From IMG/VR virus record IMGVR_UViG_2667527582_000004: a stretch of 13,399 nt of DNA. The stretch is one strand, 5' to 3'. A model generated the notes under the pieces. That model ran no database searches. It was given only the letters and a program-made list of their open reading frames with translations, and had not been told where the DNA came from. Positions within the stretch are counted from its first letter, which is position 1; every line of letters begins with the position of its first letter. Of this stretch, positions 2,118 to 13,265 are shown in pieces. The stretch comes from a virus (taxonomy: Duplodnaviria > Heunggongvirae > Uroviricota > Caudoviricetes). The position numbers and the translations under genes are program-made.

Positions 2118-2245
2118 TTATGTCTATCATCTCACCGTAGTTGCCCGCATCGTTCGCCAACTCCACTGAAACCCTTGCTGCGTCTGGAATGTCGTTTTCC
2201 ATGCTTTTGATGACCGTTCATCACCCTTCCAGTTTTTCGCGGTTT

Positions 2246-2300
2246 TGTGTATTGCAATGTGTATTGCAAATTGGCGATCGGGATGGGTGTGTATTGCAAA
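2246..2300. repeat. three direct copies of 12-mer TGTGTATTGCAA upstream of int (candidate integrase arm-type or operator sites)
   Basis: Perfect copies at 2246-2257 and 2258-2269 (tandem) and 2289-2300. Variant copies of the same 12-mer recur at 12938-12961. Confidence 0.6.
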
Positions 2301-2317
2301 TCTCTTGAGGGCTTTTA

Positions 2318-3559
2318 ATGGCTATTGAAAACAAACTCAGTGACAAACTGTTAAAGAGTCTTGTCGGAAAACGGCAGGACAAACAAAAAACAATAGCGGA
2401 TGGGCGCGGGTTGTCTGTGCGTGTAAGCATGGTTGGGGGGATCAGCTTTGTTTTTTACTATCGTCTTGGTGGCAGGGAATCCCCTCCGGTATGGCTTACA
2501 CTTGGTCGCTATCCTGACATGTCTCTTGCAACGGCCAGGCGCATGCGTGATCAGTGCCGTGAATGGCTGGCTGAAAATCTGGACCCCCGCAGGCAAATAA
2601 AACTTGCTGCCGAAAAAACTATGCAACCAGTGACCGTAAGGGATGCGCTGTTTTACTGGTACGACAATCACGCCACAACAGCCAGAAAAGAGCATGAATA
2701 TTTAATAAAACGATTTGAAAAGCATATCTTCCCCTATATCGGTGATATGGCTATAGAACAGTGCAAATTACACACATGGCTTACCGTCTTTGACAGGATC
2801 AAAAAAAATGCGCCTGTTATGTCTGGTGCAATTTTTCTTGATATCAAACAGGCGTTGCGTTTTTGTCGCGTCAGGCAATACATCGCGTGCGATCCCTTTG
2901 GAGATATTAACGTAAGTTATGTCGGGCGCTCATCCGGTATAAGGGATCGCGTTCTTAATATCAATGAAACCGCTGATGTATGGTCTTATGCTTACGGTAA
3001 TAATTTGCTAACTCTGTCATCAATATATAACCGAAGAATAATGGTTATCTGCCTGGTGTTTGGTTGCCGACAGCAGGAGGCGAGGCTATCCACCTGGGAC
3101 GAATGGGATTTAAAAAACTGGGTATGGACAGTCCCAAAAGAGCACAGCAAAAACAAGGAGGCTATAGTAAGGCCTGTTCCTGACGGAATAAAACAATGGA
3201 TCGTTAATCTTTACGCAGAAACAAAAAATCGCGGTTATGTTGTCGGTTGTGCTTTGCAAAGGGCGACAATAACAGGGGCTGCAAACAGAATATGCAGGCG
3301 TCTTGGTCATGATACTAATGGCTTGTGGTGCATACATGATTTCAGGCGCACATTTTCCACTACGCTTAATGATATGGGGGCGGATCCTTATATTGTCGAA
3401 CTTCTTTTAGGTCATAAAGTGAAAGGGGTTGCTGGTGTTTACAATAAAAGCAGGCATATAAAGAAAAAACTTGAGGTGCTTAATATGTGGGTTAATTACC
3501 TTAATACGATAGCAGGATTTAACAACAACGTTATCGAGCTTAATAAAGAGGTGGTGTGA
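2318..3559 (+). CDS. int: tyrosine recombinase / integrase, P4 family
   Basis: 413 aa; N-terminal arm-binding region resembling P4 Int (GRGLSVRV...FVFYYRL...LGRYPDMSLATAR); C-terminal catalytic region with HDFRRTF and LLGH...GVY motifs (His-x-x-Arg and catalytic Tyr). RBS GAGGG upstream of the ATG. Confidence 0.93.
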   Translation: MAIENKLSDKLLKSLVGKRQDKQKTIADGRGLSVRVSMVGGISFVFYYRLGGRESPPVWLTLGRYPDMSLATARRMRDQCREWLAENLDPRRQIKLAAEKTMQPVTVRDALFYWYDNHATTARKEHEYLIKRFEKHIFPYIGDMAIEQCKLHTWLTVFDRIKKNAPVMSGAIFLDIKQALRFCRVRQYIACDPFGDINVSYVGRSSGIRDRVLNINETADVWSYAYGNNLLTLSSIYNRRIMVICLVFGCRQQEARLSTWDEWDLKNWVWTVPKEHSKNKEAIVRPVPDGIKQWIVNLYAETKNRGYVVGCALQRATITGAANRICRRLGHDTNGLWCIHDFRRTFSTTLNDMGADPYIVELLLGHKVKGVAGVYNKSRHIKKKLEVLNMWVNYLNTIAGFNNNVIELNKEVV

Positions 3560-3560
3560 T

Positions 3561-3818
3561 ATGGCAATTTATTCTCTTGTTGATGAAAACGATTTGCGCA
3601 CAATGAAGGACATTGATCGGTTCATTCGTGAAAAAGAGTGCATAGCACTTACCACGCTGGCAAACTCAACACGCTGGAAAATGGAGCAGGCAGGTAAATT
3701 CCCGCGACGTATCAAGATCGGTGAACGTGCTGCAGGGTATCGACTTTCAGAGGTTCAGGCATGGATCCGTGGTGAGTGGCATCCTGGATGGAAACCTGGA
3801 AAAACAAAACAGCAATAA
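3561..3818 (+). CDS. alpA: AlpA-family HTH protein (excisionase / transcriptional regulator)
   Basis: 85 aa; HTH segment CIALTTLANSTRWKMEQAGKFPRRIKIGERAAGYRLSEVQAWI is typical of the AlpA / Vis family. Start 2 nt after the int stop with RBS AAAGAGGTGG. Confidence 0.82.
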   Translation: MAIYSLVDENDLRTMKDIDRFIREKECIALTTLANSTRWKMEQAGKFPRRIKIGERAAGYRLSEVQAWIRGEWHPGWKPGKTKQQ

Positions 3819-3830
3819 CCAGTAAATAAT

Positions 3831-3854
3831 GCCCCTCATCACGAGGGGTTTTTT
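3831..3854 (+). terminator. rho-independent terminator after int-alpA
   Basis: Stem CCCCTC / GAGGGG with loop ATCAC, followed by TTTTTTG. Confidence 0.75.
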
Positions 3855-3874
3855 GTCTATAAGGTAAAAACGCG

Positions 3875-11389: not shown

Positions 11390-11860
11390 ATGAAATCGCA
11401 CCTGATGAACAAAAAAAACATGGCGCAAAGCTGCCGTGTAAGTGCGACAGCGTTCGACAAGTGGGGAGTGACTCCCGTTGAACGTAAAGGCCGCGAGGCG
11501 TTTTATGATGTTGCCAGCGTAATAGACAATCGGGTTAGCAATGCAATTAACCAGATTACAGACGACAAAGGCGAGATTGATGATGATGAACTCCTACGAG
11601 TCAGGATCAGATTGCTGACAGCACAGGCAGAGGCGCAGGAGCTTAAAAACGAGCGCGAACGCGGCGACGTTATTGATACAGCGTTTTGTATATACGTGCT
11701 TTCAAAATTGGCGAGTCAGATTTCTTCAATCATGGACAGCCTGCCGCTTGCCATGACAAGGAAGTTTCCCGACATGAAGCCGTCTATGCTGGATGGACTG
11801 AAAAAGAAGTTATCAGAGCCTGTAACGCATGCGCAAAACTTGACGAAAACATACCGCTGA
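11390..11860 (+). CDS. terminase small subunit, lambda Nu1-like; C-terminal region frame-shifted relative to lambda (possibly truncated or a pseudogene)
   Basis: N-terminal two-thirds align with lambda Nu1 (LTAQAEAQELKNERERGDVIDTAFCIYVLSKLASQISSIMDSLPLAMTRKFPDM versus lambda LTRAQADAQELKNARDSAEVVETAFCTFVLSRIAGEIASILDGLPLSVQRRFPEL). After FPDM the Nu1-like C-terminus (SRHEAVY...LDENIPLMLSDYLMETAG) continues in the -1 frame (track ORF 11686..11931), while the in-frame reading ends at 11860 with an unrelated tail. Start 11390 chosen for RBS GGGGA. Confidence 0.8.
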   Translation: MKSHLMNKKNMAQSCRVSATAFDKWGVTPVERKGREAFYDVASVIDNRVSNAINQITDDKGEIDDDELLRVRIRLLTAQAEAQELKNERERGDVIDTAFCIYVLSKLASQISSIMDSLPLAMTRKFPDMKPSMLDGLKKKLSEPVTHAQNLTKTYR

Positions 11861-11942
11861 TGCTGTCCGATTATCTGATGGAAACTGCCGGAAACGTACC
11901 GGATAAGTTGCAGCCGAATAAAGATAAGTAACGTAGTACGCT

Positions 11943-12224
11943 ATGACTGAATCCGAAATACTGCGATTAATCCGCCGTGCTTGTGGAATCAGCAAGCAGC
12001 ATGACGAACAGGCCACGCAGCCGGACAGCGTGACCGCAGATAATTATGTGCGTGTAGTGGCTGAGGTGATGCGCCGTGACGGTATTGAGCTTAACGGCGT
12101 GGATATGCGCAACATACGAACAAGAGTCCTTGAGTTGCTGGCATATCGTCGCCGTTCTCAACAACGGAGGGAGAGCGCGAAAAATACTTACCAGTGGAAG
12201 AAGCCGGAACGATTGCGGCGGTAA
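11943..12224 (+). CDS. hypothetical protein (93 aa), basic C-terminus
   Basis: ORF begins 12 nt after the -1-frame Nu1-like stop; weak RBS; no family recognised; it sits where lambda would carry gene A. Confidence 0.4.
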   Translation: MTESEILRLIRRACGISKQHDEQATQPDSVTADNYVRVVAEVMRRDGIELNGVDMRNIRTRVLELLAYRRRSQQRRESAKNTYQWKKPERLRR

Positions 12225-12472
12225 CTTGCTGATATTCCCGATAACGCAAAATTGCGCTGGCTGACTTGTTGCATTGCAAAAAGTTAAGCAGGAAGGCACG
12301 GCCTGTAAGATGGGATGCAGTAAGTAGTTCAAGGCTACCTTGTGCTGGCACGCACAGTTAAGCCGTCGGTGCTGGATATCCCCCACTGGGGGAAAAGCTG
12401 GCTACATCCCTCACATCTGAGGACTGATAACGCGACATTGCGCTGGCTGGCAAAGTGCAAAATTGCACGATG

Positions 12473-12607
12473 GCCTAACCCATTGATTATTTCGAAAACC
12501 TGCAATGCAGGAAATCGGGGAAGTAAGCCTAAGCTATTGATTGTTTCGAAAACCCCCATTGGGGGATGTCGGGAAAGTAAGACTAACCCATTGATTCTTC
12601 CACAATC
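12473..12607. repeat. 2.5 copies of a 54-bp tandem repeat (27-bp conserved half plus 27-bp palindrome-bearing half)
   Basis: Conserved halves GCCTAACCCATTGATTATTTCGAAAAC (12473-12499), GCCTAAGCTATTGATTGTTTCGAAAAC (12527-12553), GACTAACCCATTGATTCTTCCACAATC (12581-12607); the intervening halves carry CTGCAATGCAG and CCCCCATTGGGGG and share the tail TCGGGRAAGTAA. Confidence 0.65.
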
Positions 12608-12937
12608 CTCAATTTGAGGAGGCCGGAACGTCTACATAGCTGCATCGCCGTAATGATGATTCAGCCCACCAGCCAAATCAGCACAGCAACGACAGAATAG
12701 CCCGACACAGAAAAACCACGAATATGGGGTTTTTGTTATGACATGGTCATGATGACCACTCATACAAAACAGGTAAAGCCCACCAGCCTGATTAAAGGTT
12801 AACCGGAAAAAAGCCAGGTATCCAATCTCGATATGGGGATCCCTATATCGACATTAACGCCCACTAAAACTGTGCATATATGCATAGAAAAAGCATCCAC
12901 CAGCTTTATGACGGATGCCGCTCATCTTATAAATAAT

Positions 12938-12961
12938 CGTGTATTGCAGTGTGTATTGCGA
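12938..12961. repeat. two tandem variant copies of the TGTGTATTGCAA 12-mer (candidate arm-type sites at the other end of the element)
   Basis: CGTGTATTGCAG (12938-12949) and TGTGTATTGCGA (12950-12961), in the same orientation as the three copies at 2246-2300. Confidence 0.5.
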
Positions 12962-13039
12962 CTCCTTTAAACGATAGGTCTGAGCATTCGTAATGTACTG
13001 TTTTTAAATTTTATTTTTTCCTGTCTTTTCATAAAGGCG

Positions 13040-13265
13040 ATGTATGCCGCCACCATTGAGAGTGAGCTGGATACGCAGTCAGCGATGGATTTTATTCTGG
13101 GCGCGAACAGTCAGGAGCAGCGGGAAAGGCTGACCGGCTGGATTGGTGAAATTGCCGCGTATTACGCCGCAGCGCCGGTCCGGCTGGGAGGCGCAAAAGT
13201 ACCGCACCTGATGCCGGGGGACTCACTGAACCTGCAGACGGCTCAGGACACGGATAACGGCTACT
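13040..13265 (+). CDS. hypothetical protein, 3'-truncated by N-run
   Basis: ATG at 13040 with RBS AAAGG; 75 codons of protein-like composition (MYAATIESELDTQSAMDFILGANSQEQRERLTGWIGEIAAYYAAAPVRLGG...) running into the N-run; no family recognised. Confidence 0.4.

Follow-up and report, generated by a model that had tools for sequence, protein, structure and literature searches.

Helper-embedded phage-inducible chromosomal islands (HE-PICIs) occupy the late genes of lambda-type prophages, in which 491 of them have been mapped to 14 sites (Tommasini, Mageeney & Williams 2023, NAR Genom Bioinform 5:lqad036, PMC10111431). Two of these elements, Eco4623.11 (CP006834.2/1830842-1841738) and Eco2613.11 (CP011416.1/3698288-3709185), are listed there as '11.B_Phage_portal_2_241' with the identity block 'aaggcgat', and the Nu1-type small terminase gene (terS) of this portal-site group is not discussed in the main text of that paper. 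For the founding HE-PICI, 11capE (Eco567.11capE), excision of the composite, then replication, and then excision of the satellite have been measured (PMC10111431). Gram-negative phage-inducible chromosomal islands (PICIs), including EcCICFT073, carry homologues of capsid (c1499) and head-decoration (c1500) genes, and some carry terS (Fillol-Salom et al. 2018, PMC6092414). AlpA-dependent induction and a functional pri-ori replicon were shown for EcCICFT073 (PMC6092414), and RppA heterodimerises with the small terminase (TerS) of the helper, retargeting it to the island's own cosB (PMC6739421). Here, we analysed a stretch of 13,399 nucleotides assigned to Caudoviricetes (IMG/VR record IMGVR_UViG_2667527582_000004, hereafter the window), in which an initial annotation, made from the sequence alone, had placed a helper-dependent satellite of a cos-type lambdoid phage. 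That core reading was right, and we conclude that the satellite, of 10.9 kb, is a HE-PICI of the site group B:Phage_portal_2:241, inserted in the same orientation into a lambda-like prophage, at codon ~241 of the portal gene, with a probability of about 0.88 for this reading as a whole.

EcCICFT073, with which the satellite is compared throughout, is the model Gram-negative cos PICI (Fillol-Salom et al. 2018, ISME J; 2019, Mol Cell). The initial annotation had left open whether the exact architecture of the element was already described. PICIs with gpE and gpD homologues, some with terS, appear in PMC6092414 and the same site group in PMC10111431; the class of the satellite, its integration site and near-identical copies in named genomes were already published in 2023. 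The satellite was a correct call rather than a discovery, and its nesting in the portal gene of its own helper, missed at first, is its most distinctive property.

Nesting of the satellite in a helper portal gene

The middle contig of the window was compared by megablast with 5,426 complete Escherichia coli genomes, and matches with a coverage of at least 80% were counted. The satellite was found in 53 genomes, at 98.9-99.9% identity. The neighbourhoods of three of them (H1, H5 and H20) were opened, and in each the satellite lay between two halves of the portal gene B of a lambda-like prophage, annotated by RefSeq as partial pseudogenes, in the order nohD (Nu1), large terminase (TerL), W and portal 5' half, then the satellite, then portal 3' half, protease C, D, E, FI, FII and tail genes to J. 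The prophage of H20 (APEC O2-211, CP006834) is a complete lambda-like one, running from exo/bet/gam through cI, O, P, Q and lysis genes to J, lom and stf. The published coordinates of the two listed HE-PICIs coincide with our matches in H20 (1830847-1841966) and H18 (CFSAN029787, CP011416), which are 98.9% identical over the full length, and the published attL and attR alignments (PMC10111431) are the sequences found at the window ends.

The window itself retains one side of this arrangement. Its middle contig ends in 232 bases (13034-13265) that match positions 238-317 of the Phage_portal_2 profile, and this remnant is on the same strand as the satellite, that is, co-oriented with it. The 8-bp direct repeat AAGGCGAT is present at both satellite junctions, the attL copy being seen in three other loci (L001, L002 and L019). 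Excision in silico yielded an intact portal open reading frame (ORF) of 533 aa without an internal stop codon; left unexcised, the 5' portal fragment runs on into satellite sequence as far as a stop codon behind residue 293. The predicted attP junction after excision is TCATAAAGGCGAT/TTATGTC (wider form TTTTCATAAAGGCGAT/TTATGTCTATC, the slash marking the junction), and the predicted restored portal attB is GTGAAGGCGATGTATGCC (wider form ATTGTGAAGGCGATGTATGCCGCC).

In HE-PICIs, the attP centre is flanked by the doubled motif tgTGTATTGCantgTGTATTGCa, at a distance of ~81 bp on the upstream side and ~132 bp on the downstream side (PMC10111431). A doubled motif, TGTATTGC-n4-TGTATTGC, was found in the left arm of the satellite at 2248-2267, with a third TGTATTGC copy at 2290, and again in the right arm at 12940-12959. 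The upstream copy (12940-12959) is 78-86 bp away from the centre of the core, according to where the distance is taken, and in the reconstructed attP the downstream motif starts (2246) 132.5 bp from the core centre. The doubled tgTGTATTGCantgTGTATTGCa motif flanks the attP core at distances close to those published.

The IMG/VR contig L019 (UViG_2713896729_000010) is 100% identical to the satellite of the window, including a deletion in terS described below, and its left flank is the 5' half of the portal gene. L019 and the window may stem from one genome.

Make-up of the window

The window consists of three pieces parted by runs of 10 N at 2108-2117 and 13266-13275. The left-hand piece (1-2107) holds asnB and, behind it, a tRNA-Met gene truncated to its 5' part, which was recognised by Rfam and missed, as a cut gene, by ARAGORN, and the right-hand piece (13276-13399) is a part of gadB, 100% identical in E. 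coli genomes. The asnB, metT and gadB loci are far apart, and contigs typically break at multi-copy genes such as tRNA-Met and gadA/gadB. Positions 2118 and 13265 are ends of the middle contig beside the N runs, and not ends of the satellite, as they had been taken to be. Because the N runs join the middle contig to unrelated ones, with asnB/tRNA-Met to its left and gadB to its right, the apparent tRNA neighbourhood of the satellite is an artefact of concatenation, and adjacency across the runs is invalid. Integration at tRNA-Met beside asnB is ruled out, since the join cuts the tRNA and the right-hand gadB piece comes from a distant locus. The element is not a free-standing one beside a tRNA; in complete genomes, it lies inside the portal gene of a lambda-like prophage. 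The statement that a portal gene was lacking holds for the satellite but not for the interval 2118-13265, the last bases of which (13034-13265) are the portal 3' part. The window can serve as a teaching case in two ways: N-joined contigs can pass off an artificial tRNA neighbourhood as an integration site, and an overlooked 232-bp gene fragment can reveal a parasite nested in its own helper.

Relationship to described PICIs

The satellite of the window and the published members of B:Phage_portal_2:241 are the same satellite, with no difference of kind: the insertion into the portal gene is co-oriented, and the four zones follow in the order integration, Bro, replication and late. What sets the window copy apart from the published ones is a 1-bp deletion in terS, private to it, and a patch of variant sequence that extends from the 3' end of the gene for the single-strand DNA-binding protein (SSB) to the 5' part of the capsid gene. 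Its int gene is nucleotide-identical to that of H5, annotated as WP_000963723.1, and the same accession is annotated in CP006834, a listed HE-PICI of this site group. The integrase was assigned to the HE-PICI clade on the basis of this sequence identity, the shared accession and the att identity block. As in other HE-PICIs, a late gene is disrupted without replacement sequence, and the gene is rebuilt by excision in silico. The founding element 11capE shares the lifestyle, integrase clade and attP motif, is similar in size (~11 kb) and has its own capsid homologue, but its target is the capsid gene E (site E:Phage_cap_E:80) and not the portal gene B, and it is reportedly without terS.

EcCICFT073 was taken from the CFT073 genome and all its proteins were compared with those of the satellite. 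The two elements are syntenic, in the order int-alpA, ylcI-like gene (leftward) and icd-like gene, small ORFs, DUF4222 gene, pri-ori, ssb, major capsid protein, decoration protein, cos, packaging gene and orf93. The primase proteins share 97.8% aa identity, followed by orf83 (81%), orf93 (76%), DUF4222 (72%), SSB (66%) and AlpA (60%). In contrast, the integrases are only 40% identical, consistent with different target sites, EcCICFT073 being at a chromosomal site and not in a prophage. The satellite carries a Bro-N gene and lacks the PerC gene of EcCICFT073. The general features of Gram-negative PICIs were all recovered, namely a terminal int-alpA pair, an iteron origin behind pri-rep, a size in the range of ~10-15 kb, no lysis or tail genes, and a phage-like cosN with a non-phage cosB, except for an Rpp protein redirecting the helper TerS, the position of which is taken by a Nu1-type TerS. 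Rpp is not universal among PICIs, and its absence does not exclude membership.

The cos site and the small terminase

The lambda cohesive-end 12-mer GGGCGGCGACCT has one exact occurrence in the window, at 11245-11256, whereas chance would yield ~0.002 exact matches to a 12-mer over the two strands of 13.4 kb. Around it, a 77-bp stretch (11213-11289) shares 91% identity with the cos of the helper prophage; the likeness ends where lambda cosB begins, and the cosB-equivalent downstream is diverged. EcCICFT073 likewise combines a lambda-like cosN with a non-phage cosB. However, EcCICFT073 encodes RppA (144 aa), which hijacks the phage TerS, and has no terS, whereas the satellite encodes a full-length Nu1-type TerS and no Rpp homologue: no ORF matched the CFT073 RppA in blastp at E <= 0.01, and the Rpp entries 6HLK and 6HN7 were absent from the results of PDB sequence searches with the three late-region proteins. 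Directly behind cos lies rppA in EcCICFT073 (L004 14500-15094) and the full-length Nu1-type terS in the window (11189-11931). Between elements with primases 97.8% identical, it looks as though modules that redirect packaging in different ways had been exchanged. The second AlpA-like gene of the satellite has no counterpart in the late region of EcCICFT073.

The satellite TerS is 36% identical to the helper NohD over its full length, and the alignment takes in the C-terminal segment (…LDENIPLMLSDYLMETAG vs …LDELIPGLLSEYIEQSG). In lambda Nu1, the C-terminal segment is the gpA-binding region. Because the C-terminus of the satellite TerS resembles the TerL-binding part of the helper Nu1, we infer that the protein recruits the helper TerL. 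As the simplest mechanism, the satellite TerS would bind the satellite cosB and recruit the helper TerL, which would then cut the shared cosN. In the window, terS has a 1-bp deletion (A5 for A6, at 11797-11801); the open frame ends at 11860, giving a product of 156 aa, and the last 42 residues are swapped out. The A6 allele was found in 56/56 complete E. coli genomes with the gene and the A5 allele in none, its only other occurrence being in L019. The A5 allele reflects either a sequencing error in a homopolymer or an inactivation of the gene in the very recent past.

A small terminase of the satellite's own that steers the helper large terminase, as proposed here, is also a feature of the SaPI-type PICIs of Staphylococcus that encode TerS. 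The SaPIs differ in that they use pac (headful) packaging, belong to an unrelated Gram-positive lineage, are chromosomal and are controlled by the Stl repressor rather than by AlpA.

Capsid and decoration homologues

The capsid homologue starts at 9402, and a 417-aa ORF from 9189 is an over-extension. It is 42% identical to the E protein of the helper prophage and 55% identical to c1499 of EcCICFT073; the decoration homologue is 38% identical to the helper D and 54% identical to c1500. Among 50,697 phage genomes, the closest phage relative of the capsid protein was lambda E (42.3%) and that of TerS was N15 gp1 (47.6%). A recent capture of either gene from a phage was unsupported, and because no phage relatives closer than these were found, the capsid and TerS genes appear to be old satellite lineages.

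PICI capsid gene knockout is tolerated, according to the authors who described HE-PICIs (PMC10111431). By arithmetic only, four copies of the 10.9-kb satellite (~43.7 kb) would fill a lambda-sized head, and a monomer would need a much smaller one. As a single, tentative proposal, which we consider doubtful, the portal-site lineage may have exchanged an EcCICFT073-style Rpp for a Nu1-type TerS with a private cosB, as a cos-type Gram-negative counterpart of the SaPI strategy of an own TerS, and the diverged gpE and gpD homologues might build, or co-assemble into, satellite-sized heads on the portal and protease of the helper, an intermediate between classical and capsid-forming PICIs.

Proposed life cycle

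The life cycle proposed here builds on what was read directly from the DNA (genes, sites, nesting and a portal ORF that excision restores) and borrows the order of excision, AlpA-dependent induction and the pri-ori replicon from the literature on 11capE and EcCICFT073. While integrated, the satellite would split the helper portal gene, so that the helper could not make heads. After induction, the helper would excise and replicate, and Q-antiterminated late transcription from nohD-A-W-B' would presumably read into int and alpA of the satellite. Int and AlpA would then excise the satellite at the AAGGCGAT core, restoring the portal gene, and the satellite would replicate by means of its own primase-helicase and iteron origin. 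Packaging would make use of the exact lambda cosN, the private cosB-equivalent and the Nu1-type TerS, which probably brings the helper TerL (gpA) to satellite DNA, the task performed by RppA in the sister element EcCICFT073. The portal, protease, tails and lysis proteins would be supplied by the helper, and the diverged gpE and gpD homologues, with their putative role in the capsid, would either co-assemble into heads or remodel them.

Alternative explanations

The initial annotation had stated that a TerL, portal and tail module directly contiguous with the segment would make it a fragment of a full prophage. The complete genomes do have TerL, W, portal, protease, D, E and tail genes immediately to its left and right, and such a picture could be expected of one larger lambdoid prophage, a mosaic with duplicated head genes and no separate element. 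Nevertheless, the segment is a satellite nested in its helper and not a prophage fragment, and the single-prophage explanation is effectively refuted: the flanks are halves of one portal gene that rejoin across the 8-bp repeat, the insert encodes a separate Int and AlpA at one end and has arm-type motifs at both, and the prophage retains Nu1, E and D proteins that share only 36-42% identity with the copies in the insert. Moreover, the insert is syntenic with a free-standing PICI and shares with it a nearly identical primase, and it occurs in helpers that, by their names, are integrated at different chromosomal sites, tRNA-Arg and PBP/ybhC (PMC10111431). Membership of another family, P4-like elements or capsid-forming PICIs, could be argued from the P4-type integrase, AlpA, the D5-type primase-helicase and the own capsid, decoration and TerS genes. 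However, the overlap with P4 is limited to the integrase, AlpA and the D5-type helicase, and no match to the Psu, Sid or Delta/Ogr families was obtained in the 20 ORFs scanned. The gene inventory and profile scans revealed capsid, decoration and TerS homologues inside the satellite and no portal, protease, head-tail connector or TerL gene, the portal fragment being that of the helper. The gene order and proteins fit Gram-negative PICIs, which makes another family most improbable; the earlier view that the element is neither a classical P4 nor a capsid-forming PICI is upheld by its gene content.

The satellite might also be a fossil, a decayed and immobile remnant that merely inactivates its host prophage. 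The terS frameshift of the window copy, the failure to obtain particles for the related 11capE, the missing excised junction in public assemblies and the comment of the authors of PMC10111431 that many HE-PICI helpers look truncated would all agree with this, but we regard it as improbable. Every ORF except terS is intact, terS itself being so in all the complete genomes that carry it, and across strains of human, poultry, pig and dog origin the variation in most of the satellite is 0-0.3%. Furthermore, copies occur within complete lambda-like prophages, and precise excision was measured for the sister element 11capE. Some observations do weigh against the HE-PICI reading with the life cycle that we propose. 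Neither virions nor transfer were detectable for 11capE, the only HE-PICI tested (PMC10111431). Exact 30-mer and 23-mer searches of IMG/VR, JGI metagenomes and GTDB genomes did not find the excised attP junction, a negative of little weight, since excised forms seldom end up in assemblies. Terminator-like hairpins, such as that at 3831-3849, could limit read-through transcription, and the frameshift in the window terS lies right before the presumed TerL-binding C-terminus and, if real, would disable the proposed packaging. Finally, deletion of c1499 or c1500 in EcCICFT073 left the interference with phage lambda unrelieved (PMC6092414).

Gene content and sites

The features of the middle contig are listed in Table 1. 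Profile searches confirmed the families in the gene inventory of the initial annotation (Int, AlpA, a ribbon-helix-helix (RHH)-like protein, Bro-N, primase-helicase, SSB, gpE, gpD, a second AlpA and a Nu1-like TerS), and motif counts did so for the lambda-type cos, the iteron origin and the operator; the analysis added the portal fragment and the terS frameshift, neither of which it had mentioned.

Table 1. Features along the middle contig of the window, with window positions, strand and basis of assignment
Feature	Position	Strand	Basis or remark
Left arm of attachment site	2118-2317	+	starts right after attL core; core lost at contig break
Tyrosine integrase, P4-type, with arm-binding domain	2318-3559	+	Pfam PF13356 (Arm-DNA-bind_3), PF00589 (Phage_integrase), PF22022
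AlpA, excisionase/activator	3561-3818	+	Pfam PF05930, E = 5e-14
Bro-N domain protein ('Bro zone')	3875-4453	+	Pfam PF02498, E = 5e-20
YlcI/YnfO-family, RHH-like putative regulator	4787-5092	-	NCBIfam NF041551, PHROG 6522
Divergent control region	5093-5282		operator-like 10-mer copies and promoter-like site
Icd-like gene	5283-5480	+	NCBIfam NF033153
Three small ORFs	5473-6071	+	PHROGs 3672, 1478, 2196 for block 5283-6388, including Icd-like and DUF4222 genes
DUF4222 gene	6089-6388	+	Pfam PF13973
Primase-helicase (replication initiator, 'pri-rep')	6385-8139	+	Pfam D5_N, DUF5906, Pox_D5
Iteron-type replication origin	8147-8376		immediately 3' of primase gene
orf83	8488-8739	+	81% identical to EcCICFT073 counterpart
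SSB	8736-9185	+	Pfam PF00436
Major capsid protein homologue, lambda gpE family, 346 aa	9402-10442	+	Pfam PF03864, E = 2e-41
Head decoration protein homologue, lambda gpD family	10452-10793	+	Pfam PF02924
Second AlpA-family winged helix-turn-helix protein, 127 aa	10805-11188	+	Pfam PF05930, PHROG 2790, PDB 8c3t (AlpA protein)
cos site	11213-11389	+	exact cosN at 11245-11256
Nu1-type small terminase, 180 aa in reference copies	11390-11931	+	Pfam PF07471, PHROG 57
orf93, conserved 93-aa protein	11943-12224	+	PHROG 1561; 76% identical to last gene of EcCICFT073
Repeat-rich non-coding right arm	12225-13033		~800 bp, gene-free, from orf93 to attR
attR core AAGGCGAT, 8-bp identity block	13034-13041	+	matches 'aaggcgat' listed for the site group
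3' part of helper prophage portal gene B, outside satellite	13042-13265	+	Pfam PF05136

Integration, Bro and control genes

A strong symmetric hairpin with T-runs on both strands was found by the terminator scan directly 3' of alpA (3831-3849), and it is a possible bidirectional terminator parting int-alpA from the Bro gene. The RHH-like regulator is 55% identical to its EcCICFT073 counterpart. The helper prophage also has a small YlcI/YnfO-family gene (L001 8639-8833), just upstream of the helper cos and nohD, and the satellite and helper genes are barely alike beyond the N-terminal RHH-like motif. The control region contains three copies of the operator-like 10-mer GTGTGTTTCA/TGAAACACAC, at 5114, 5159 and 5182, and the rightward promoter-like site at 5154-5182 is overlapped by copies of it. 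C4/isrK-type immunity RNAs, which have been reported in some PICI Bro zones, were not found, an Rfam search at E <= 0.1 giving a tRNA only, and no anti-phage defence cargo was matched by PADLOC in 10 ORFs.

Four further IMG/VR contigs (L009, L010, L013 and L015) share the int-alpA-Bro segment (2118-4553 of the window) at 98-99.8% identity, the match extending to position 5162 in L009. In L009, L010 and L015, the replication and late modules attached to the segment are different ones or have diverged, and L013 departs from the window mainly in 4554-5473. The comparison shows modular shuffling downstream of the Bro zone.

Replication module and right arm

The TCTACC/GGTAGA iterons number 10 copies, all in 8156-8373 and none elsewhere in the window, and the origin region falls in a block that is 87% identical to EcCICFT073. 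The orf83/SSB segment (8488-9185) matched PHROG 1231. A patch at 9094-~9900, comprising the 3' end of ssb, the intergenic region and the 5' part of the capsid gene, shows a divergence of 2.4-16% between the type of the window and H1 and the type of H5 and H20; outside it, the difference is <2% per feature and 0-0.3% for most features. This suggests an exchange by recombination upstream of the late genes.

The right arm has three tandem 54-nt units at 12473-12634, each with a short hairpin, and many TTGCA-type palindromes (12225-13033). As RNA, the region 12225-12640 folds much better than shuffled sequence (z = -4.5). Two segments, at 12583-12626 and 12773-12862, are ~86% conserved in EcCICFT073, and the right arm as a whole varies by at most one base (0-0.1%) between strains.

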